Assembly (NCBI GenBank): GCA_965248445.1 | Contig: CBDFJG010000003.1 | Span: forward strand, 256,001-320,000 | Length of the DNA stretch: 64,000 nucleotides | Source of the DNA: Planctomycetota bacterium | Lineage (GTDB): Bacteria > Planctomycetota > JAJSAM01 > JAJVHW01 | Direction: 5' to 3' | Shown: one piece after another, positions 17,116-63,995 of the stretch | How the letters are laid out: the number at the start of each line of letters is the position of its first letter | Numbering within the stretch: position 1 is the first letter of the stretch | Notes under the pieces: generated by a model | Databases searched by the model: none | The model's input: only the letters and a program-made list of their open reading frames with translations | What the model was told of the DNA's origin: nothing | Made by a program: the position numbers and the translations under genes

Positions 17116-18647
17116 GTACCCGTTCAGCCCTTGGTTCTGAGCTCGGATCCAGATCGCTTTCCGTTCGGTCGATGAATCGGATGTGGGCACCGATGAGCTG
17201 CGTGATCTGGTCGAGCGCCTGACCCGTCGTCTGGACGCTCGGGACGAGACGATTGCCGAGCAGGCGGAGGTGATCGAGCGGCAGGCGGCACGGATCGACG
17301 ATCTCGAGAGCCGTCTTCGCCGGGACTCCCGCACCTCCTCGCGCCCACCGTCCTCGGATCCGTCGTGGTCCAAGAAGCGGCGGCGGCGCAAGCCGCCGTC
17401 GGACAAGCGCCAGGGTGCGCAGCCCGGCCACAAAGGGGCGACGCGCAAGCTCGTGGACGAGTCCGAGGTCGATGGCGTAGAGGACCACCGCCCGCGCGAG
17501 TGCAGCGCGTGTGGGAGCGACGTGCTCGTCCCGATCGATCGCGCCCCGACACGCCAGCAGGTCTTCGAGGTCCCGCCACGGCTGATCCAGGTGACCGAGC
17601 ACCGGTTGCACCGGGCACGGTGCACGGACTGTGGCGCCACGTCCACTGCCTCGCTGCCAAGCGGTGTGACGGCGAGTCCCTTCGGCCCGCGACTCTGTGC
17701 GCTCACCGCGGCTCTGGTCGGCGTCTTCCGCCTGTCGCGGCGCGAGACCAGTCGTCTGTTGCGTGACGTCATCGGCGTCTCGATGTCACCGGGCACGGTC
17801 AGTGCGATCGAGGAGCGGGTGTCGGGAGCCATCTCCTCAGCGCACATCGAGGCCCTCGGGGCCGTACGCACGAGCAGCGTCGCCTATGTAGACGAGACAC
17901 CGTGGTCGCGTCGTGGCACGCTGCATTGGCTGTGGAGCGCGGTCTGTGAGCACGCCACGGTCCATCGTATCGATCGGCGCAGGAGCGCCAAGGCCATGCG
18001 GCGACTCGTGGGCAAGCGCTTCAGGGGCGTCCTCGTGACCGACCGTATGGGCGCTTACGACCAGCATCCCACCGAGCGCCGCCAGATCTGCTGGGCGCAT
18101 CTCGAGAGGGACTTTCGAGCGCTGGCCGAGGGCTCGCGCGGCGGCCGGCGCTTCGGCAAGCAGGCCGTGCGTCTCGCCCAGGCTGTCATGCGAGCTCAGC
18201 GTCACTTCGGCGAGCACGGGGACCGCGACCGCATGCGGCGTGAGCTGCGTCTCACATGGGACCGACTCCTGACGCTGCTCGTGCGCGGCGCAGACAGCAA
18301 GCACCGCCGAGTACGCGGAACGACTCGGCATCTGCTCGACCGAGCGGAGGCTCTGTGGACCTTCGCCGACGTCCCTGGCGTCTCCCCGACGAACAACGCC
18401 GCTGAGCGCGCGGTGCGCAAGCCGGTCCTGTGGAGACGCGCAACGCACGGAAGTCAGAGCGAGCGCGGACTCCGCTTCGTCGAGCGCATCCTGACCGTCA
18501 CCGCCACGCTCCGCCAGCGTGGCGAGAGCGTCTTCGATTACCTCGCAGACGTCAGCGCGGCACTCGCGCACAACCGCTCGCCGCCGGCTCTCGTCGCGCT
18601 CCCGATCACGCGCTGAGGCCGCGGATCGTCATACCCTGAACGGGTAC
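17116..18647 (+). mobile_element. IS66-family element (single-ORF, ISBst12-like), copy 1, 1532 bp
   Basis: 12-bp perfect IRs GTACCCGTTCAG...CTGAACGGGTAC; 8-bp TSD CTACGCCG at 17108-17115 and 18648-18655. Confidence 0.95.
17183..18616 (+). CDS. IS66-family transposase (TnpC-like)
   Basis: Coiled coil then DSRTSSRPPSSD, GAQPGHKG, Zn finger CSAC/CTDC, VDETPW, LVTDR, QICWAHL, PTNNAAERAVR. Confidence 0.95.
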   Translation: MGTDELRDLVERLTRRLDARDETIAEQAEVIERQAARIDDLESRLRRDSRTSSRPPSSDPSWSKKRRRRKPPSDKRQGAQPGHKGATRKLVDESEVDGVEDHRPRECSACGSDVLVPIDRAPTRQQVFEVPPRLIQVTEHRLHRARCTDCGATSTASLPSGVTASPFGPRLCALTAALVGVFRLSRRETSRLLRDVIGVSMSPGTVSAIEERVSGAISSAHIEALGAVRTSSVAYVDETPWSRRGTLHWLWSAVCEHATVHRIDRRRSAKAMRRLVGKRFRGVLVTDRMGAYDQHPTERRQICWAHLERDFRALAEGSRGGRRFGKQAVRLAQAVMRAQRHFGEHGDRDRMRRELRLTWDRLLTLLVRGADSKHRRVRGTTRHLLDRAEALWTFADVPGVSPTNNAAERAVRKPVLWRRATHGSQSERGLRFVERILTVTATLRQRGESVFDYLADVSAALAHNRSPPALVALPITR

Positions 18648-33107: not shown

Positions 33108-33917
33108 ATGCGGCTCTTCGATCCCCACGTCCACATGTACTGCCGTCTGACCGACGACTACGAGCAGATGGCGCTCTCCGGCATCACCACGCTCGTCGAA
33201 CCGGCCTTCTGGCTCGGCACCTGCCGCACGCACCCGGAGTCGTTCTACGACTACTTCGAGCACATCACGGTGTTCGAGAAGAACCGCGCGGCGAAGTACG
33301 GCATCAACCACTACCAGTGCATCGGCGTCAATCCCAAGGACGCGGACAACCTGGAGGTCACGCTCCCGACGGTCGAGGGCATGCGCCACTTCTTCGAGCG
33401 GCCGTCGGTCGTGGGCGTCGGCGAGATCGGCCTCAACGAGAACACGCAGAACGAGATGGTCGGACTCGAGAAGCAGCTCGACCTCGCACAGGAGCTGGGC
33501 CTGCCGGCACTGGTTCACACGCCGCACGTCGACAAGAAGACCGGCGTCGAGATGATGGCGGAGCTGATCAAGGGCAAGAGCTACCGCAACGAGTTGATCC
33601 TGATCGACCACATCACCGAGGAGACGATCGAGATCGTGCGCGACCTGGGTGTGTGGGTCGGGATGACGGTCTACCCGTTCTCGAAGCTCTCCCCGGACCG
33701 AGCCGTCGCCATGTTCAAGCGCTACGGCCCCGAACTCATGATGGTGAATTCGTCGGTGGACTGGGGTGAGAGCGACCCGTTGTCGGTCCCCAAGTGCGTC
33801 CGGTTGATGCGGCGCGAGGGATGGACGGAAGCGGAGATCGACCGCTTCGTGTGGAAGAACCCGGTGGCCTTCTGGGGTCAGAGCGGGCGCTTGTCCGAGA
33901 CCGCGGTGATGCCGTAG
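33108..33917 (+). CDS. TatD-family metallohydrolase (EboB-like subfamily)
   Basis: DPHVHM..RLTDDYEQMA..EPAFWLG, IGVNPK, VGEIG, VHTPH..K, IDH, NSSVDWGESDPLSVPK. Confidence 0.8.
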   Translation: MRLFDPHVHMYCRLTDDYEQMALSGITTLVEPAFWLGTCRTHPESFYDYFEHITVFEKNRAAKYGINHYQCIGVNPKDADNLEVTLPTVEGMRHFFERPSVVGVGEIGLNENTQNEMVGLEKQLDLAQELGLPALVHTPHVDKKTGVEMMAELIKGKSYRNELILIDHITEETIEIVRDLGVWVGMTVYPFSKLSPDRAVAMFKRYGPELMMVNSSVDWGESDPLSVPKCVRLMRREGWTEAEIDRFVWKNPVAFWGQSGRLSETAVMP

Positions 33918-33919
33918 CC

Positions 33920-35257
33920 GTGGCGGTCCCATTCAAGGCATACGACATCCGGGGCGTCGTCCCGGACCAGCTCGACGAAGCGATGGCGGAGCGGGTCGGC
34001 CGCGCCGTTGCGACATTTCTCGGCGCCCGCCGCATGGTGGTCGGGCGCGACATGCGCGATTCGGGGATCGGCCTCTCGGCGGCGCTGATCCGTGGCATCA
34101 CCAGCACCGGCTGCGATGTCGTCGACATCGGCGTCGTCAGCTCGCCGATGCAGTACTTCGGCGTCGGCCACCTGGGTGCTGACGGCGGTGTCATGGTCAC
34201 CGCGTCGCACAATCCGGCCGAGTACAACGGCTTCAAGATCAGTGGCAAGGACGTCGTCCCGATCGGCGGAGACTCCGGGCTGATCGAGATCGAGGCGATG
34301 GTGCGCGGGGAACTCCCCCCCGCATCCGGCGAGGGAACGGTCGAGCAGGCCGACATCAAGCCGGCCTACACCGAGAAGCTGATCGGGATGCTGAGCCCGG
34401 GGGAGCGGCGGCTGAAGGTCGCCGTCGACTGCGGCAACGGCATGGGGGGCGAGGAGGTCACGCACGTCCTTTCGCACCTGCCGATCGACATCGTCGGCCT
34501 CTACCTCGAACCCGACGGAGCGTTCCCCAACCACGAAGCCAACCCGCTCCAGCCCGCAAACATGCGCGACCTGCAGGCGGCCGTGCTGCGGGAGGGCTGC
34601 GATCTGGGGATTGCATTCGACGGCGATGCGGACCGGGCGTGCTTCTGCGACGAGAAGGGCCAGATCATCGGCAACGACCTGATCACGGCGCTTCTGGCGT
34701 ACGAACTCGTGCCTGACGAGCCCGGCGCGGCCGTGGTCTACGACCTGCGCTCATCGCGCGTCGTCTCGCAGACGATCACGTCCCTCGGCGGCACGCCGGT
34801 GCGTGAGCGCGTCGGGCACGCGTTCATGAAGGCGACGCTGCGGCGTCACGCCGGGCCGTACGGCGGTGAACTCTCCGGCCACTTCTACTTCCGGGACCTG
34901 TGGTTCACGGATTCCGGGTCGTACGCGGCAGGGCTCGTTCTCTGCAAGCTGTCACGCGCAGACACGCCGCTCTCCGAGATCGTGGCGCCGCTGCGTGTCT
35001 ATCCGACGACGGGCGAGGTCAACTTCCATGTCGAGGACAAGGACGCCCTGATCGAGCGCGTCGCCGAGGAGTTCTCCGACGCCCGACAGGATCGGCTGGA
35101 CGGCATCACCATCGAGTACGACGAGTGGTGGTGCAACGTCCGCAAGAGCAACACAGAACCGCTGCTCCGGCTGGTCCTCGAGGCCGACGACACCGCGACG
35201 TTCGAGAGCGCGAGGTCACGAGTGATGGCGATACTCGGCGACCCGGTCGACGAGTGA
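33920..35257 (+). CDS. Phosphomannomutase/phosphoglucomutase
   Basis: FKAYDIRG, TASHNP (phospho-Ser), FDGDADR, GGELSGHFYF, RKSNTEPLLRL. Confidence 0.93.
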   Translation: MAVPFKAYDIRGVVPDQLDEAMAERVGRAVATFLGARRMVVGRDMRDSGIGLSAALIRGITSTGCDVVDIGVVSSPMQYFGVGHLGADGGVMVTASHNPAEYNGFKISGKDVVPIGGDSGLIEIEAMVRGELPPASGEGTVEQADIKPAYTEKLIGMLSPGERRLKVAVDCGNGMGGEEVTHVLSHLPIDIVGLYLEPDGAFPNHEANPLQPANMRDLQAAVLREGCDLGIAFDGDADRACFCDEKGQIIGNDLITALLAYELVPDEPGAAVVYDLRSSRVVSQTITSLGGTPVRERVGHAFMKATLRRHAGPYGGELSGHFYFRDLWFTDSGSYAAGLVLCKLSRADTPLSEIVAPLRVYPTTGEVNFHVEDKDALIERVAEEFSDARQDRLDGITIEYDEWWCNVRKSNTEPLLRLVLEADDTATFESARSRVMAILGDPVDE

Positions 35258-35413
35258 CTCGGCGCGGGCGTAGAGTCAGCCCGTGAAGAAGATCCTCCTC
35301 GCCGTACTCGTGATCGCGATCGTCGCAGGGATCGGCGCGCTCGTGTTGGTCGGCAATCTGGATCGGATCGTCGAGCACGCGATCGAGGCGGTCGGCAGCC
35401 GGGCAACCCGCGC

Positions 35414-36945
35414 GTACCCGTTCAGGGTATGACGATCCGCGGCCTCAGCGCGTGATCGGGAGCGCGACGAGAGCCGGCGGCGAGCGGTTGTGCGCGAGTG
35501 CCGCGCTGACGTCTGCGAGGTAATCGAAGACGCTCTCGCCACGCTGGCGGAGCGTGGCGGTGACGGTCAGGATGCGCTCGACGAAGCGGAGTCCGCGCTC
35601 GCTCTGACTTCCGTGCGTTGCGCGTCTCCACAGGACCGGCTTGCGCACCGCGCGCTCAGCGGCGTTGTTCGTCGGGGAGACGCCAGGGACGTCGGCGAAG
35701 GTCCACAGAGCCTCCGCTCGGTCGAGCAGATGCCGAGTCGTTCCGCGTACTCGGCGGTGCTTGCTGTCTGCGCCGCGCACGAGCAGCGTCAGGAGTCGGT
35801 CCCATGTGAGACGCAGCTCACGCCGCATGCGGTCGCGGTCCCCGTGCTCGCCGAAGTGACGCTGAGCTCGCATGACAGCCTGGGCGAGACGCACGGCCTG
35901 CTTGCCGAAGCGCCGGCCGCCGCGCGAGCCCTCGGCCAGCGCTCGAAAGTCCCTCTCGAGATGCGCCCAGCAGATCTGGCGGCGCTCGGTGGGATGCTGG
36001 TCGTAAGCGCCCATACGGTCGGTCACGAGGACGCCCCTGAAGCGCTTGCCCACGAGTCGCCGCATGGCCTTGGCGCTCCTGCGCCGATCGATACGATGGA
36101 CCGTGGCGTGCTCACAGACCGCGCTCCACAGCCAATGCAGCGTGCCACGACGCGACCACGGTGTCTCGTCTACATAGGCGACGCTGCTCGTGCGTACGGC
36201 CCCGAGGGCCTCGATGTGCGCTGAGGAGATGGCTCCCGACACCCGCTCCTCGATCGCACTGACCGTGCCCGGTGACATCGAGACGCCGATGACGTCACGC
36301 AACAGACGACTGGTCTCGCGCCGCGACAGGCGGAAGACGCCGACCAGAGCCGCGGTGAGCGCACAGAGTCGCGGGCCGAAGGGACTCGCCGTCACACCGC
36401 TTGGCAGCGAGGCAGTGGACGTGGCGCCACAGTCCGTGCACCGTGCCCGGTGCAACCGGTGCTCGGTCACCTGGATCAGCCGTGGCGGGACCTCGAAGAC
36501 CTGCTGGCGTGTCGGGGCGCGATCGATCGGGACGAGCACGTCGCTCCCACACGCGCTGCACTCGCGCGGGCGGTGGTCCTCTACGCCATCGACCTCGGAC
36601 TCGTCCACGAGCTTGCGCGTCGCCCCTTTGTGGCCGGGCTGCGCACCCTGGCGCTTGTCCGACGGCGGCTTGCGCCGCCGCCGCTTCTTGGACCACGACG
36701 GATCCGAGGACGGTGGGCGCGAGGAGGTGCGGGAGTCCCGGCGAAGACGGCTCTCGAGATCGTCGATCCGTGCCGCCTGCCGCTCGATCACCTCCGCCTG
36801 CTCGGCAATCGTCTCGTCCCGAGCGTCCAGACGACGGGTCAGGCGCTCGACCAGATCACGCAGCTCATCGGTGCCCACATCCGATTCATCGACCGAACGG
36901 AAAGCGATCTGGATCCGAGCTCAGAACCAAGGGCTGAACGGGTAC
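35414..36945 (-). mobile_element. IS66-family element copy 2, 1532 bp
   Basis: Same IRs and transposase as copy 1; its own flanks (ACCCGCGC and GGCTGGGC) do not match each other. Confidence 0.95.
35445..36878 (-). CDS. IS66-family transposase
   Basis: Protein identical to 17183-18616. Confidence 0.95.
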   Translation of the reverse strand: MGTDELRDLVERLTRRLDARDETIAEQAEVIERQAARIDDLESRLRRDSRTSSRPPSSDPSWSKKRRRRKPPSDKRQGAQPGHKGATRKLVDESEVDGVEDHRPRECSACGSDVLVPIDRAPTRQQVFEVPPRLIQVTEHRLHRARCTDCGATSTASLPSGVTASPFGPRLCALTAALVGVFRLSRRETSRLLRDVIGVSMSPGTVSAIEERVSGAISSAHIEALGAVRTSSVAYVDETPWSRRGTLHWLWSAVCEHATVHRIDRRRSAKAMRRLVGKRFRGVLVTDRMGAYDQHPTERRQICWAHLERDFRALAEGSRGGRRFGKQAVRLAQAVMRAQRHFGEHGDRDRMRRELRLTWDRLLTLLVRGADSKHRRVRGTTRHLLDRAEALWTFADVPGVSPTNNAAERAVRKPVLWRRATHGSQSERGLRFVERILTVTATLRQRGESVFDYLADVSAALAHNRSPPALVALPITR

Positions 36946-37790
36946 GGCTGGGCCATGGACCATCCGGAGAAACCGCCTCCCACTTCGCAGAGATCCTCCC
37001 GTCCCTACGGCGGCACTTCCATTGGCCGCCGTGCGCCTCAAGCGATTCGGCCACTGCCTTGGGGAGCACTCGTGCCACATGCCAGTAGGGCGAAGGCGCG
37101 GTCATGAGGAAGTCACGTGCGCTTCGTGGGTGGCGCTTCGCGTCGATGTTGGTCTGGTGAACGCCGTTGTCCCGCCACTCCGTGTTGAGAACGTGGATCA
37201 TCTCGCGGTCGGTATAGAGCGCCCGCAGCCGAGCCGACGTATCAGTCCACCCCTCCTTCGCCTCGAGCTTCATGTCACGGGAGAACTCCACCCATCCGGA
37301 CCCGGCAGAGATCTCGAAACCGTCAGGGTCTCCGCCCGCCTCCAGCGGAATCAGCGCGCGACTTGCGAGCTGCTGATCGACGAGTTCCTCCATGTCGGCC
37401 TGCTCGTCGGCCGAGGGAGGCTTGCCGATCAGTGCGTCCCAACGTGCACGGGCGCACGCCATTAGATGGGCCCGGGCAGCGTCGCGGAAGCCCGCCGGCG
37501 GCTCACGGTTCTCGAGGGAGTTCTCGAATACCGAGGTCCCATGAGGGAACCCACTCACGCCGTCGCGCAGGATCTGGGCGGCGAGAAGCGCCAAGTCGTT
37601 CTCCGACGGTTCCGGTTGCTCCTGCGCGAAGCCGACTCCGGTCATGCCGAGCAAGGAGACTGCCGCCGCCGCTACGACGCAGGCGCATCGGGCAGGAGCA
37701 CCCCGCAACGCCGACGTGAAGTTCACGCGGCTCCAGCGTGGCCTCGTCAGCGGGGGACGAGACCACGCGTTGGGATTGTGGCTCACGACG
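36946..37790 (-). pseudogene. Hypothetical secreted protein, 3'-truncated by IS66
   Basis: Signal-like AAAAVSLLGMTGVGFAQEQ; the frame runs without a stop into the IS66 left end at 36945; start uncertain. Confidence 0.5.
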
Positions 37791-37794
37791 CTTC

Positions 37795-39057
37795 CTAGGT
37801 GCAGTCGGGAAGCGTGTACGTCTTGACGCTGCTGCTCGGCGCGATCGAGTAGCAGCACTGATGGCCCTTCTTGGCCTTGAAGGCGGTCTGGTGCGCGCGC
37901 AGGACCAAGCCGATGGGGATGCTACACGACTGTGTCCACGTCGATACGGTGGTGGCAACCATGTTCACGGTGCTCGTGCCCACGGTGCATGTGCCATCGT
38001 CCTCACACTTGAACTGGTAGTAGAAGATGCGATCGGTCGTCGTTCCCGCGGTCCAACCGCGCGGACAGGTCACTGCCACTGACGTCTTCACGCACTTCCC
38101 GCACGCCGTGGTGGGAACTGATGCTGGCGGCTGCTGCGCCGGAACCGTCGTGGGGTAGCAGTCGTCGTCCGTCACCGTACCGGCGGGGAGTCCGGGCTCG
38201 GCGTCGAAGAGGATGCCACCGAAGCGAATGAAGCTGTTGATCGTTCCCAATGTCGACGTGGCCATCACGGTGAGGGTGGCCCTCTCGCTCGGGTACGCGA
38301 GCGCTGCGGACGGGTCGAACGCGATCAAAGCCGTGGCGCGGCTGTCCCCCGCGAGGACGGTGACCGTCGATGGCAGTGTGAGGGCGTCCAACAGCCTTGC
38401 GTCGCCCGAGAACGACAGAGTGTACTCGAGATCGGAGGACACCACGTCGTCGAGCAGGACGGTGAGTTCCACGTCGCCGGGCGTCCGAACGCCCTCCACG
38501 ATCGACTCGTCGTCCGGGACGATCGTGTGAGCCAGCATGTCGGTGTTGGCTTGGTAGACTCCGAGGTCGTCCTCCCCGAGGACGCCTGTCGTGGGGTTCA
38601 CCGTCATCACGCCCGGCCGCCCTACGTAGACGTAGAACTTCTGGTCGGCATCGATGAGCGCAGGGTGGAACGACAGGGCGTTCACCATCGGGATCTTGGC
38701 GGTCACACGGGTGCCCGCGCCATACGGCTCGTAGGAAACGAGCGTCTCATCGAGGGTGTGGTAACGCGTCGAGCCCGACTCGGCCCAGGTCACGCCGCCA
38801 CCGTCGAAGTCGAGCGCGTAGGCCACGACGACGTCGGTCGTGGGGGTCGCGTAGTCGGTGACGACTTCCACGTACCCGTGGCTCGCCACCGTGTCGATGA
38901 AGACCGGCGATCCACCGTCCACGAGGGTCGTCGCCGATCCCGTCCCCGGGTTCCACGTGGCCGACTGGATGTCACCAGCAAATGCAGTAGCCGTGGACGA
39001 GGCGAGAACGCCCAAGACCAGCGGCAGCACGAATCTATTCATCACATTTTCCTCCAT
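37795..39057 (-). CDS. Secreted beta-rich protein with Cys-rich C-terminal domain
   Basis: Signal peptide MNRFVLPLVLGVLASSTATAFA; Thr/Val-rich Ig-like body; 10 Cys in the last ~115 aa, ending DCT. Confidence 0.75.
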   Translation of the reverse strand: MEENVMNRFVLPLVLGVLASSTATAFAGDIQSATWNPGTGSATTLVDGGSPVFIDTVASHGYVEVVTDYATPTTDVVVAYALDFDGGGVTWAESGSTRYHTLDETLVSYEPYGAGTRVTAKIPMVNALSFHPALIDADQKFYVYVGRPGVMTVNPTTGVLGEDDLGVYQANTDMLAHTIVPDDESIVEGVRTPGDVELTVLLDDVVSSDLEYTLSFSGDARLLDALTLPSTVTVLAGDSRATALIAFDPSAALAYPSERATLTVMATSTLGTINSFIRFGGILFDAEPGLPAGTVTDDDCYPTTVPAQQPPASVPTTACGKCVKTSVAVTCPRGWTAGTTTDRIFYYQFKCEDDGTCTVGTSTVNMVATTVSTWTQSCSIPIGLVLRAHQTAFKAKKGHQCCYSIAPSSSVKTYTLPDCT

Positions 39058-39097
39058 GGTTTGCGAGCCCCAGTGCGGCTACCCTCTACCTGGGGCC

Positions 39098-39127
39098 AGA
39101 GTAGATCGACGGCCCAGGACCTGTCAA
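39098..39127 (-). promoter_or_regulatory. Putative sigma70 promoter for the cargo genes
   Basis: Minus strand TTGACA-N18-TACTCT upstream of 39057; a second TTGACAGGTC lies at 39160-39169. Confidence 0.45.
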
Positions 39128-39247
39128 CACGCTGGATCGGCGGGCGAGGCGGAACCCGCGACCTGTCAAGGCGCCGGGTAGGGCTCTTGAGGCGGCCGGA
39201 CATTGCGATGAAGGGCGTGGAACTCCGCCGCGGCAGGGTGGTCGATC

Positions 39248-39509
39248 TGCAGCGGTAGTGCAGCGGTGGTCGGATTCGCCCGATCCGGAGGCGCGCGGCA
39301 GATCGCACGCAGAAACCGCAAACCACTGTTCTCGAAGGACTTACGCTGGTCGGGGCGAGAGGATTTGAACCTCCGGCCTCTTGCTCCCGAAGCAACGAGA
39401 GATCGTTGTCCAGCAAGGACTTACGCGTGTCCCTCGCTGCACAAGCCGCACAAGAGGCAGGAGCGGGCGGACGTTGTGCAGCGGTAGTGCAGCGGTAGTG
39501 CAGCGGTGA
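39248..39509. mobile_element. attP-like site: tRNA-Pro 3' core flanked by arm-type repeats
   Basis: TGCAGCGGT(AG) 11-mers x2 at 39248-39269 and x3 at 39477-39509; AAGGACTTACGC at 39335-39346 and 39415-39426 bracket the tRNA fragment. Confidence 0.7.
39347..39395 (-). pseudogene. 3' half of tRNA-Pro(CGG) (att core)
   Basis: Reverse complement TTGCTTCGGGAGCAAGAGGCCGGAGGTTCAAATCCTCTCGCCCCGACCA: anticodon arm (CGG), T arm, acceptor 3' strand and CCA. D arm and 5' acceptor strand are absent. Confidence 0.85.
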
Positions 39510-39529
39510 TCCCTGGCGGAGATCGTGTC

Positions 39530-39665
39530 CCGGCCAGCGCCGACAACGTTTTCGACTACCTCGCACAGGTCAGCGCCGCCCCCGCGCACAACCGATCGCC
39601 GCCCTCGCTCGTCGCGTTGCCGACGACGCGGTGATCGGCGAGACGGTCAATGGCTGAACATCCAT
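39530..39665 (+). pseudogene. Degenerate 3' end of a related IS66 element
   Basis: ..GTTTTCGACTACCTCGCACAGGTCAGCGCC..GCGCACAACCGATCGCCGCC.. aligns by eye to 18530-18647; decayed IR (GCTGAACATCC). Confidence 0.65.
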
Positions 39666-39761
39666 GAGAAGGCCTCTTGTGTCAAGGCGTCGGATCGACT
39701 TGGCGATCCGTCCACCGCAACCGATGCCGGCTCCCTCTGCACGCATCCATCCGCACTCGTC

Positions 39762-40165
39762 GTAACCGTTCACCCCTTCGTCGCGAGCCAGTATCCAGAT
39801 CGTTCGGCCACCGGTCGATCAAGATGTTGTGGGCGAGCGGCAGGACGAGGATCTGCGGGCGATGGTCGAGGACCTTCTGGCCTGGATCGAGGAGCTGGAG
39901 CGTCGCGAAGCGAAGCATCTGCGCCGCATCGACGAGCTCGAGTCGCGTCTGAAGCGTGACTCCCGCAACAGCTCGAGGCCTCCGTCGTCGGACCCGGCGT
40001 GGTCCAAGCGCCGTCGCGGCCGAAGGCCGCGTAGCGGTCGCAAGCAGGGCGGACAGCCGGGCCATGAGGGCACGGCGCGCGAGCTGGTGGATCCGTCCAA
40101 CGTCGATGAGACCAAGGACCACCGTCCCGACCGCTGCGACGCGTGCGGACACGACGATCTCGAGC
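39762..40165 (+). pseudogene. 5' fragment of a second IS66 lineage (left IR and transposase N-terminus)
   Basis: GTAACCGTTCACCCC left end at 39762; ORF from 39829 (..RDSRNSSRPPSSDPAWSK..GGQPGHEG..DHRPDRCDACG) is then truncated. Confidence 0.75.
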
Positions 40166-40309
40166 AGGGGGCGAGCGGAGCGAGCCCTCACGAGGCGCAG
40201 GGGGCTCCCCCGGCAATTTGGTCTCCTTCTTCGTCATCGCTGATTCCTCCACCGCCCTGCACAGTAATCATCCGGGGGGTCGGTGTCTCAGCGATGTTGG
40301 CACAGAGGG

Positions 40310-40415
40310 CAGGCGCTCGACCAGATCACGCGGCTCATCGGTGCCCACATCCGATGCATCGACCGAACGGGAAGCGATCTGGATCCGAGCTCAGAACCAA
40401 GGGCTGAACGGATAC
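40310..40415 (-). mobile_element. Solo IS66 left end (106 bp)
   Basis: Matches 36840-36945 with 4 substitutions by eye, including terminal GTATCC versus GTACCC. Confidence 0.9.
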
Positions 40416-41033
40416 ACCCGCGCCACGGTCATGGTCGACGCGGTCGACCTGCAGATCACCGAGGGCAAGGGGACGATCAGCGGGGTCTCTGTCGGTAGTC
40501 CGGCGGGCTTCGCGGCTGAGCGCGCGTTCGCGTTCGATCGCGTGACTGTGGAACTCGATCCGGACGCGCTGACGCGCGTGCCGATCGTCGTCCGGCGGGT
40601 CACGGTCGACCGCTGCGACGTCACGTATGAATGGCAGCTCCACGGAAGCAACATGTCACGCCTGCAGGAGAACGTCCGCGAGTACCTGGCGGGCGAACGC
40701 ACCATCCGGGAGGCCGCCGGAGGGGATGAACCCTCCCGCGTCGTCATCGAGGAACTCGTGATCTCGGGCGGCACGATCGACCTGACGGCGTCGGCGCTCG
40801 GTTCAGCGGTCGTTGCGCTGCCGCTCGACCGGATCGTGCTCCACGACGTGGGCAAGAAGGAGGGCGGCGCAACAGCGGGGGAGATCACCGCTGAGCTCGT
40901 GCGCGCGCTCACTCGCCGCGTGATCGAAGCCGTCGCGAACTCCGGTGTCGACGTCCTGGACGATGCCCGGAAGACGGGCGAGAAGATCCTCGAGGGCGCG
41001 AAGGACATCCTCGACGGCGCGCGCGGGGACTAG

Positions 41034-42702
41034 CCCGAATCGTTCACCAGCCGGGAATCTGAGCGGGCCGTCGTCTGTCTAAGTGCTCGTACTCGCTAGT
41101 ACTTGCACCGACAGGAGCGCCGGCCCGATGACGACAGACTGTAGCCCGCAGGGGACCCTCTTCGCGGGCATCTGTGGACGCACCGCGGTGACGCGCTTCG
41201 ACGCCGGTACCGTGACGAGCGACGGGGGCGTGCTGCTGCTCGAGCGGACCGATCGTCGCATCGATCTGCTCTCGCGGTTTGCGCGCTGCTTCGGGGACCA
41301 CCGGGACCCGCGTCGGGTCGAGCACACGGTCGGCCAGATGCTGCGTCAGCGGGTCTTCGGGCTGTGCGCGGGCTACGAGGATCTGGTGGACCACGACCAT
41401 GTCGGCAAGGACCCGCTGTTTGCCGCGGCGTGCGGCAAGCGCGAGGGTGCTCTGGCCACGCACCCGACGCTCTCGCGGCTCGAGACCACGCAGCTCGGCG
41501 CCACGGCACAGACGCGCTACGCCAAGATCGAGATGGACCAGGAGCGCGTGGACAGCGTGCTCAGCGACGTCTTCTGCGAGGCCATGGGGCCGGAGGATCC
41601 GGGCCTGCTCGTGCTGGACCTGGACCACTCCGACGTGCGGCTGCACGGCCGGCAGGAGGGCCGCTTCTTCCACGGCTACTACGGGCACTACTGCTACCTG
41701 CCGCTGTACGTCTTCTGCGGCGAGCACCTCTTGCTCGCTCGGCTCCAGACCGCTGACAGAGATCCCGCGCGCGGAGTCGTGGACGAGCTCCGTGCGCTGG
41801 TCTTACGTCTGCGGCGCCGCTGGCCCCGGGCCAAGGTGCTCGTGCGCGCAGACTCGGGCTTTTGCCGCGAGGAGCTGATGGCCTGGTGCGAGGCCGCCGG
41901 CCACTTCTACCTGCTGGGCATGGCGCGCAATGAGCGCCTTGAGCGACACGTCGAAGACGCGCTCGATGAGGCCGCAGCCCGTGCCGTGCAGACCGGCCGA
42001 GCAGCCCGGGTCTTTCGCGACTTTGCCTGGACCACGCTGGGGAGCTGGAGCCAGAGGCGTCGCGTGGTCGCCAAGGCCGAGCACCTGCCGGGCGGCAAGC
42101 GCAATCCCCGCTTCGTGGTGACCAATCTGCCGCCTCGTAGCTGGAGCAGCAAGCGTCTCTACGAGCAGCTCTACTGCGCCCGGGGCGAGGCGGAGAATCG
42201 CATCAAGGAGCAGCAGCTCGAGCTCTTCGGCACCCGTCTGTCGGTGCACACGATGCAGGGCAACGCCGTGCGGATGGCCATGTCGGCCATGGCCTACGTC
42301 CTGACCTGTGCGCTGCGACGCATCGGTCTCGCCGGCACCGAGATGGCGCGTGCGCAAGCCGGCACGATCCGCCTGCGGCTGCTCAAGATCGGCGCGCTCG
42401 TGCGGATCACGACGCGCCGGATCTGGGTCTCGATGTCCTCGTCGTGGCCCTGGCAGCACGTCTTCGAGCGCTGCGCGCAACGACTGCTGGCATCCCCGAA
42501 GCCGACCTGACGTCCCGCCGCGCCGTCCGCCACACCACCGCCCGGCCTACGGTCTGCCCACACCGCAGAATCCGCGCCGTTTCGGCCGCTCACTCGCGTT
42601 GCCCTTGTGGCAACGACGACAGCATCCGCCCTCGCCTGGCCAAGATCTGACCCTGTGGACTCCGAAAGCACCGTCATCGCGACGTCTCGTGAACAGATGC
42701 GG
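41034..42702 (+). mobile_element. IS1380-family element copy 1, 1669 bp
   Basis: Imperfect IRs CCCGAATCGTTCAC / GTGAACAGATGCGG; CTAG on both sides (41030-41033, 42703-42706); boundaries set by identity with copy 2 (end uncertain by 1 bp). Confidence 0.9.
41128..42510 (+). CDS. IS1380-family DDE transposase
   Basis: FDAGTVTSDGGVLLL, GYEDLVD, LDLDHSD..HGRQEG.FFHGYY..CYLPL, VRADSGF, NPRFVVTN, YCARGEAENRIKE. Confidence 0.95.
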   Translation: MTTDCSPQGTLFAGICGRTAVTRFDAGTVTSDGGVLLLERTDRRIDLLSRFARCFGDHRDPRRVEHTVGQMLRQRVFGLCAGYEDLVDHDHVGKDPLFAAACGKREGALATHPTLSRLETTQLGATAQTRYAKIEMDQERVDSVLSDVFCEAMGPEDPGLLVLDLDHSDVRLHGRQEGRFFHGYYGHYCYLPLYVFCGEHLLLARLQTADRDPARGVVDELRALVLRLRRRWPRAKVLVRADSGFCREELMAWCEAAGHFYLLGMARNERLERHVEDALDEAAARAVQTGRAARVFRDFAWTTLGSWSQRRRVVAKAEHLPGGKRNPRFVVTNLPPRSWSSKRLYEQLYCARGEAENRIKEQQLELFGTRLSVHTMQGNAVRMAMSAMAYVLTCALRRIGLAGTEMARAQAGTIRLRLLKIGALVRITTRRIWVSMSSSWPWQHVFERCAQRLLASPKPT

Positions 42703-42755
42703 CTAGCCGCGCTGGATAGCGCCGCCCGCGACGGCCCTGGTCAGGAGAGCGCAGC

Positions 42756-62463: not shown

Positions 62464-63995
62464 GTACCCGTTCAGGGTATGACGATCCGCGGCCTCAGCG
62501 CGTGATCGGGAGCGCGACGAGAGCCGGCGGCGAGCGGTTGTGCGCGAGTGCCGCGCTGACGTCTGCGAGGTAATCGAAGACGCTCTCGCCACGCTGGCGG
62601 AGCGTGGCGGTGACGGTCAGGATGCGCTCGACGAAGCGGAGTCCGCGCTCGCTCTGACTTCCGTGCGTTGCGCGTCTCCACAGGACCGGCTTGCGCACCG
62701 CGCGCTCAGCGGCGTTGTTCGTCGGGGAGACGCCAGGGACGTCGGCGAAGGTCCACAGAGCCTCCGCTCGGTCGAGCAGATGCCGAGTCGTTCCGCGTAC
62801 TCGGCGGTGCTTGCTGTCTGCGCCGCGCACGAGCAGCGTCAGGAGTCGGTCCCATGTGAGACGCAGCTCACGCCGCATGCGGTCGCGGTCCCCGTGCTCG
62901 CCGAAGTGACGCTGAGCTCGCATGACAGCCTGGGCGAGACGCACGGCCTGCTTGCCGAAGCGCCGGCCGCCGCGCGAGCCCTCGGCCAGCGCTCGAAAGT
63001 CCCTCTCGAGATGCGCCCAGCAGATCTGGCGGCGCTCGGTGGGATGCTGGTCGTAAGCGCCCATACGGTCGGTCACGAGGACGCCCCTGAAGCGCTTGCC
63101 CACGAGTCGCCGCATGGCCTTGGCGCTCCTGCGCCGATCGATACGATGGACCGTGGCGTGCTCACAGACCGCGCTCCACAGCCAATGCAGCGTGCCACGA
63201 CGCGACCACGGTGTCTCGTCTACATAGGCGACGCTGCTCGTGCGTACGGCCCCGAGGGCCTCGATGTGCGCTGAGGAGATGGCTCCCGACACCCGCTCCT
63301 CGATCGCACTGACCGTGCCCGGTGACATCGAGACGCCGATGACGTCACGCAACAGACGACTGGTCTCGCGCCGCGACAGGCGGAAGACGCCGACCAGAGC
63401 CGCGGTGAGCGCACAGAGTCGCGGGCCGAAGGGACTCGCCGTCACACCGCTTGGCAGCGAGGCAGTGGACGTGGCGCCACAGTCCGTGCACCGTGCCCGG
63501 TGCAACCGGTGCTCGGTCACCTGGATCAGCCGTGGCGGGACCTCGAAGACCTGCTGGCGTGTCGGGGCGCGATCGATCGGGACGAGCACGTCGCTCCCAC
63601 ACGCGCTGCACTCGCGCGGGCGGTGGTCCTCTACGCCATCGACCTCGGACTCGTCCACGAGCTTGCGCGTCGCCCCTTTGTGGCCGGGCTGCGCACCCTG
63701 GCGCTTGTCCGACGGCGGCTTGCGCCGCCGCCGCTTCTTGGACCACGACGGATCCGAGGACGGTGGGCGCGAGGAGGTGCGGGAGTCCCGGCGAAGACGG
63801 CTCTCGAGATCGTCGATCCGTGCCGCCTGCCGCTCGATCACCTCCGCCTGCTCGGCAATCGTCTCGTCCCGAGCGTCCAGACGACGGGTCAGGCGCTCGA
63901 CCAGATCACGCAGCTCATCGGTGCCCACATCCGATTCATCGACCGAACGGAAAGCGATCTGGATCCGAGCTCAGAACCAAGGGCTGAACGGGTAC
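62464..63995 (-). mobile_element. IS66-family element copy 3, 1532 bp
   Basis: Same IRs; left flank GGACCTTG (62456-62463), right flank begins GGACC at the window end, consistent with an 8-bp TSD. Confidence 0.95.
62495..63928 (-). CDS. IS66-family transposase
   Basis: Protein identical to copies 1 and 2. Confidence 0.95.
   Translation of the reverse strand: MGTDELRDLVERLTRRLDARDETIAEQAEVIERQAARIDDLESRLRRDSRTSSRPPSSDPSWSKKRRRRKPPSDKRQGAQPGHKGATRKLVDESEVDGVEDHRPRECSACGSDVLVPIDRAPTRQQVFEVPPRLIQVTEHRLHRARCTDCGATSTASLPSGVTASPFGPRLCALTAALVGVFRLSRRETSRLLRDVIGVSMSPGTVSAIEERVSGAISSAHIEALGAVRTSSVAYVDETPWSRRGTLHWLWSAVCEHATVHRIDRRRSAKAMRRLVGKRFRGVLVTDRMGAYDQHPTERRQICWAHLERDFRALAEGSRGGRRFGKQAVRLAQAVMRAQRHFGEHGDRDRMRRELRLTWDRLLTLLVRGADSKHRRVRGTTRHLLDRAEALWTFADVPGVSPTNNAAERAVRKPVLWRRATHGSQSERGLRFVERILTVTATLRQRGESVFDYLADVSAALAHNRSPPALVALPITR

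Follow-up and report, generated by a model that had tools for sequence, protein, structure and literature searches.

The 64,000-nucleotide stretch analysed here (the window, positions 256,001 to 320,000 of contig C3, or G000:C3:256001-320000) belongs to a Planctomycetota genome of 5.40 Mb that is assembled in four contigs, with a guanine plus cytosine (G+C) content of approximately 68.7%. At window positions 35414-40415, it carries a unit of 5,002 bp whose two ends are the right end of an intact insertion sequence (IS) of the IS66 family, a 1,532-bp element with a single open reading frame (ORF) that we named IS-A, and a solitary 106-bp variant left end. The unit is very probably a compound transposon, in which the IS-A transposase would have paired the right end of a donor IS with the left end of a remnant and copied the block between them to C3. 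The two copies of an 8-bp target duplication, ACCCGCGC, lie directly outside this block as the initial annotation had claimed, the left one at 35406..35413 (plus strand) next to the IS right end at 35414 and the right one at 40416..40423 (plus strand) next to the solo end at 40415.

The ends were compared within a set of 215 IS66-like ends of the genome, including 35 right ends that were used to calculate the expectation of a flank match. As an outer flank, ACCCGCGC was present only at the two ends of the unit, which is also the sole duplication-matched pair of ends separated by 1.9-100 kb. Given the base composition of 42 IS-A target 8-mers, approximately 0.005 chance matches would be expected between the flank of the solo end and any of the 35 right ends. 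No further cargo unit was detected among the 215 ends, where two pairs belonging to a second IS66 element (IS-B, 1,500 bp) had only 12-14 nt of flank in common, and no circle junctions were detected in the genome, since no abutting ends were closer than 63 bp. Base composition is flat in the unit, and no sigma-70 promoter or terminator matches were found within it.

The solo left end (40310..40415, minus strand) differs from IS-A's own left end by substitutions at positions 4, 45, 60, and 84, with 102 of 106 bp identical, which agrees with the earlier description of a stand-alone left end with four substitutions, one of them within the terminal repeat. Three of the four variants are common to another left-end remnant at C3:457729; they therefore predate the move, and the solo end derives from an older IS-A isoform and is no chance look-alike. 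The T at position 4 was also found at one end of an IS66 isoform located at C3:480170-481707 that nevertheless has a perfect 8-bp duplication, and this base is thus no strong barrier. Truncation of the solo end occurred at base 106, the point at which it meets the left part of an IS3-family element. Altogether, three further solo IS-A left ends were found in the genome, at C3:153053, C3:457729, and C4:387164 (approximately 116, 167, and 105 bp, respectively), none with a duplication partner.

The search for the donor predicted by the initial annotation led to a second copy of the unit in the same genome, at C2:851326-856327, which is identical over exactly 5,002 bp and has no target duplication. 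This copy stops at the terminal base of each end, its flanks are unrelated to those at C3, and the cargo occurs at these two places of the genome only. The IS of the C2 copy and an IS-A copy at C4:1077199-1078730 have reciprocal flanks: GCCCAGCC is situated before the left end at C2 and after the right end at C4, and CTCGGAAA shows the opposite arrangement. The open frame behind the C4 copy continues, in phase, a cargo gene cut by IS-A, and the opposite flank holds a gene divided in a similar manner, for which genome paralogs unite the signal-peptide half and the main half within a single protein. These reciprocal flanks and in-frame gene parts point to C2 as the native place of the cargo. Moreover, no partner for the outer flank of the C2 solo end was found at any of the 215 ends when up to one mismatch was allowed, and C2 therefore does not look like a landing site. 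On these sequence comparisons, the direction of movement is from C2 to C3.

The cargo gene cut by IS-A is represented in the window by its 5′ part of 281 codons (36946..37789, minus strand). Positions 36946..36953 (plus strand) are the inner half of an older target duplication, GGCTGGGC, which formed when IS-A inserted into this gene at the donor locus. The missing 3′ part had been predicted to lie beside this 8-mer, and an in-frame remainder was indeed located behind the other half, which follows the IS-A right end at C4:1078730, from C4:1078731 onward. The earlier statement that the left end of the IS cuts a cargo ORF was correct, and the remainder reported as absent is missing from the window only. 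A tyrosine integrase gene is situated approximately 4 kb past the cargo-gene remainder (C4:1082892-1084271), and because of it the native cargo region may have been part of an integrated island. Next to the donor, from C2:856328 onward, lies a region of 5 kb that includes an RHS-repeat-like gene (identified by eye) and has a 99% identical paralog at C3:458184-463260. The remnant at C3:457729 is near a region 99% identical to that beside the C2 copy, and the C3:458184-463260 paralog likewise adjoins a remnant of the older IS-A isoform.

At the C3 site, the unit interrupts a host gene whose 5′ part of 43 codons (35283..35413, plus strand) is 70% identical to residues 1-43 of an intact homolog, P0002, and whose 3′ part (40416..41033, plus strand) is 62% identical to residues 42-246 of the same protein. 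The two parts, of 131 and 610 nt, make up 247 codons including the stop, and the intact 246-aa homolog, which comes from another source, spans the junction. P0002 was obtained by protein search and not by synteny; among 3034 candidates, this search matched only P0002 and the window's own protein. The synteny check covered 31 genomes, 26 of which matched the upstream gene; two of the five loci from other genomes were examined, and their ORFs of at least 150 aa included no evident host-gene homolog. The host gene product is a 246-aa DUF748-like membrane-anchored protein with a DUF748 match below the cut-off (E 7.7e-5), and the homolog carries PF05359 together with a TIGR03545 match below the cut-off. 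Removing the unit restores the gene in frame, as had been stated, while the AsmA-like label given to the gene drew matches below the cut-off only.

IS-A itself occupies positions 35414..36945 on the minus strand, with its right end at 35414, its own left end at 36945, and perfect 12-bp terminal repeats, GTACCCGTTCAG, at both ends. A transposase ORF of 477 aa (35445..36878, minus strand), composed of DUF6444, zf-IS66, and DDE_Tnp_IS66 domains, accounts for 1,434 of the 1,532 bp, and neither tnpA nor tnpB is present. The protein matched PF03050 with 111.7 bits (cut-off 23.1) and NF033517 with 294.6 bits (cut-off 180). The DDE transposase, the 8-bp duplication, and the 12-bp inverted repeats GTACCCGTTCAG place IS-A in the IS66 family, and its ends conform to the terminal inverted repeats beginning with GTA that characterise this family. 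By its single-ORF architecture, the element is assigned as ISBst12-like (ISBst12 group). Among the 33 full copies of IS-A in the genome, 32 measure 1,532 bp, and these are all identical except for one with a single base change. Fourteen of the 33 copies have kept their own duplication, which measures 8 bp in all 14, and in the remaining 19 the flanks match 8-mers at other copies, that is, they are swapped. Two more identical copies are found in the window at 17116-18647 and 62464-63995, each with its own 8-bp duplication. Insertions of IS-A inside IS-A were observed at C2:297627-300842 and C4:378926-380752, where partial copies are stacked and the flanks match other loci.

The history of the unit could be reconstructed in four steps. 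An older IS-A isoform at C2 would have been reduced to its first 106 bp; the IS3 fragment abuts the cut, and from this boundary we infer the order of the events. A current IS-A copy then landed in the cargo gene, 3.5 kb from the remnant and oriented like it, and duplicated GCCCAGCC, an insertion recorded by the two duplication halves and the in-frame gene parts. In the third step, the right end and the remnant left end would have been paired, with the near left end passed over, and the 5,002-bp block would have entered the C3 host gene, duplicating ACCCGCGC in one event; the donor kept its copy, and copy-and-paste is the most likely route. Either before or after this step, the donor IS would have swapped flanks with another IS-A copy, and the cargo gene's 3′ half would thereby have come to lie on C4; the reciprocal flanks are present at both loci, and the exchange is proposed from them. 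All four variant bases, position 4 included, are found on the outer end of the unit at C3, and none is found on the inner end. The earlier proposal that a distant variant end was used and that passenger DNA was moved is thus supported by the donor, the gene remainder, and the position-4 variant carried at C3. The product can be read directly in the genome, and from it we infer the enzyme, the bypass of the near left end, and the pathway.

Several observations weigh against a compound transposon that moved from C2 to C3. The donor locus is incomplete, with the 3′ continuation found on another contig, and the cut cargo gene has no homolog among 8000 candidates to confirm that its halves belong together. 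Only a single landing event is recorded, and repeated mobility of the unit was not seen. The flanks of 19 of the 33 IS-A copies are swapped, so the pairing of junctions across copies leans on the assembly. In four public runs, all derived from a single sample that the assembly may itself have come from, none of the listed contigs covers the whole unit and none holds the joint of the empty site. In the search for the empty site, the right-flank pattern also gave no matches in metagenome contigs, from which records of the source genome are possibly excluded; neither negative demonstrates that the empty site is missing.

These points bear on whether the assembly itself created the unit, or paired its flanks, as an artefact at repeats. 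The lack of a listed contig across the unit would fit such an artefact, as would the small number of IS66 copies that have kept their own duplications (14/33 for IS-A, 2/40 for IS-B, and 1/5 for IS-C). However, both outer junctions and the C2 left junction were found in run contigs: the left junction in three of the four runs (33500-35441), the right junction bridged in three of the four listed runs (40386-41056), and the C2 left junction in all four. The variant end is found only beside the cargo, at its two places, and the right junction could therefore not be built from a plain IS. Furthermore, the assembly breaks at repeats of approximately 9-13 kb and passes several 5-kb repeats. The depth of the cargo was close to the C3 flank depth plus the C2 junction depth in the four runs, with values of 3.6/3.2, 5.8/6.1, 13.9/16.3, and 7.4/8.2 for cargo minus C3 flank against C2 junction, a weak hint that comes from one sample. 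An artefact is quite unlikely in the light of these data.

It is slightly less probable still that a plain IS-A made the duplication in the host gene and that the cargo was acquired later by homologous recombination, through a circle excised between the two direct 106-bp left ends or by gene conversion from C2. The two left ends do form direct repeats that are 96% identical, and the IS copies of this genome seem to recombine often. Nevertheless, such an exchange predicts the resident C at position 4 beside the duplication as well as hybrid ends, whereas the outer end carries all four variants and the inner end none, leaving only the last 3 bp for the exchange. The position-4 variant at C3 also contradicts the scenario that had been named as a refutation, namely an older insertion whose interior was later rebuilt. 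The least credible version is one in which an old full-length isoform made the C3 duplication, the interior was rebuilt, and the C2 copy was derived from it: an older isoform is indeed the origin of the solo end, but the C2 copy has no duplication and no flank partner at the 215 ends, the two copies are 100% identical, the right end is of the current IS-A type, the cargo-gene remainder is linked by reciprocal flanks to the C2 copy and not to C3, and another remnant of the older isoform adjoins the paralog of the region beside the C2 copy.

Regarding the organization of flanks in the whole genome, most IS66 copies are without their own 8-bp duplication, and the distant flank matches of IS-A include three clean reciprocal pairs and one three-way cycle. 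A broader hypothesis would be that the single-ORF IS66 transposase accepts a diverged, distant left end with the donor kept, and that the swapped duplications (19/33, the donor included) result from replicative intramolecular transposition instead of homologous recombination; if true, the single-ORF IS66 group would have a second, rearranging pathway. We consider this improbable. Abutting duplications flank 14 IS-A copies as well as the unit, the same pattern also arises when inverted copies recombine, and 11 of 19 IS3 copies are likewise without a 2-3-bp match at their uncertain ends. Among the elements taken as controls, IS1380 copies showed CTAG at both ends, and IS3 copies showed short duplications with uncertain ends; GC skew was too noisy for judging inversions. 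Split, reciprocal duplications of IS26 have been read as intramolecular replicative transposition in the available text of one report (PMC4471558), and homologous recombination was favoured for an IS66-bounded deletion in that of another (PMC6778807). The IS1380-like element, of 1,677 bp with CTAG at both ends, has 64 full copies in the genome, including one at window positions 41030-42706 and a second from 56937. It apparently targets CTAG and also forms head-to-tail dimers and a trimer that share one CTAG (C3:1101663-1105012; C4:1198091-1203113).

The cargo of the unit comprises 3.47 kb, consisting of one intact gene for a hypothetical secreted protein, half a gene, and approximately 1.1 kb of mobile-element debris. 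Of the passenger DNA proposed at the outset, about 1.1 kb thus corresponds to remains of other mobile elements. The cut gene showed no homolog among the 8000 candidates scored and no Pfam or NCBIfam match. Next to it, the intact ORF of 420 aa (37795..39057, minus strand) is hypothetical, with a signal-peptide-like start and a Cys-rich end (by eye); it had no Pfam or NCBIfam match, and its best Atlas scores were 0.81 or lower. It is followed by a repeat of approximately 255 bp (39243..39496, no strand assigned), in which 18-bp direct repeats surround the 3′ half of a tRNA-Pro gene (39341-39394, minus strand). Copies of this repeat are also found at C4:1978598, C4:90310, and C4:25167, the last one overlapping a full tRNA-Pro gene; the element could represent the relic of an attachment site or else a small mobile repeat. 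The debris continues with a degenerate right end of another IS66 isoform (approximately 80% identical to IS-A) plus a 114-bp stretch common to C1:586005-586118 (39530..39761, plus strand), and with a 408-bp left fragment of IS-B (39762..40169, plus strand) that has five mismatches and contains DUF6444; IS-B is present in 40 full copies. Finally, the left fragment of the IS3-family element (40170..40309, minus strand) abuts and truncates the solo end, and the element related to it at C1:99887 has a transposase gene of the IS3 type (NF033516 match of 186.7 bits; cut-off 160). The unit is without evident selected function: its movement knocked out one gene and duplicated one hypothetical gene.

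When compared to known systems, the unit shares with compound transposons the outer IS ends of the same type that bound the cargo, the target duplication outside the whole, and the presence at two places, one donor-like and one with a duplication. It lacks the two complete IS copies, as the far flank is a 106-bp remnant. We read it as a natural compound transposon of a one-IS-plus-remnant variant, presumably moved by the transposase, and, since the solo end is a true sister-isoform remnant, as an ordinary compound transposon with one decayed flank. A related arrangement is said to have been engineered by Han et al. in 2001 from IS679, where a marker placed between an intact IS66-family element and a one-end fragment (Tn679) reportedly moved with an 8-bp duplication. 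Tn679 was reportedly a laboratory construct from the three-ORF IS66 group with an identical right end as the solo end, whereas our unit is natural, has a single-ORF element, and uses a variant left end.

Among natural cases, derivatives of Tn6330 (ISApl1-mcr-1) are described, in the text available, in which the downstream ISApl1 is reduced to its last 42 or 90 bp; comparison with empty sites led to their duplications being accepted as legitimate, although experimental proof was still requested (PMC5821093). As in the unit, an intact IS and a short remnant with a terminal repeat enclose the cargo, and the duplication is outside the whole. Those derivatives belong to the IS30 family, with a 2-bp duplication, a remnant right end, and a selected resistance cargo; in contrast, the unit belongs to the IS66 family, with an 8-bp duplication, the left end of a diverged isoform as remnant, no evident selected cargo, and its donor in the same genome. 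Another comparison concerns modules of ISPme1 and ISEcp1 (IS1380 family), reported to use fortuitous distal ends (PMC9330008, PMC3281130; available text). Here, too, one IS mobilises adjacent DNA by means of a distal end that replaces its own. In the portions of those reports consulted, the modules use repeat-like fortuitous sequences beyond the 3′ end with variable endpoints, unlike the unit, whose distal end is a real IS remnant (102/106 bp) beyond the 5′ end with one endpoint. A transposable module of the ISEcp1/ISPme1 type was therefore rejected, the distal end not being fortuitous and the endpoint being single.

Within the same group, the available text of a 2026 report presents ISDge4 (ISBst12 group) as active in copy-and-paste transposition with an 8-bp duplication, announced as a first, and calls the mechanism of the IS66 family insufficiently characterised (PMC12898284). 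ISDge4, as described there, resembles IS-A in its single ORF (449 aa against 477 aa), in its imperfect terminal repeats starting with GT, in its 8-bp duplication, and in the retention of donors. Because donors were reported to be retained for ISDge4, the retained donor of the unit agrees with a copy-and-paste mode. In its accessible part, that report deals with simple insertion of the IS by itself and mentions no cargo unit. A natural cargo unit of a single-ORF IS66 element was not found in the open full-text literature, a search that had most subscription papers and supplements outside its range. The suggestion that few descriptions exist of this mode of capture is in line with this result for the single-ORF IS66 elements, but the kind is known from the Tn6330 derivatives and the solo end is a true remnant.

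The principle is therefore already known, no function is assigned to the cargo, and the surprise for a specialist may be modest; the evidence is unusually complete. The unit documents a natural instance of a single-ORF IS66 element capturing genes, with the donor, the landing site, both duplications, and the terminal marker base preserved in one genome. Since active transposition in this group was first reported in 2026, according to the available text (PMC12898284), IS-A offers a ready test system for end recognition. The unit indicates that 106 bp of a diverged left end suffice, so that decayed IS remnants in IS-rich genomes stay usable and DNA flanked by such debris can become cargo.

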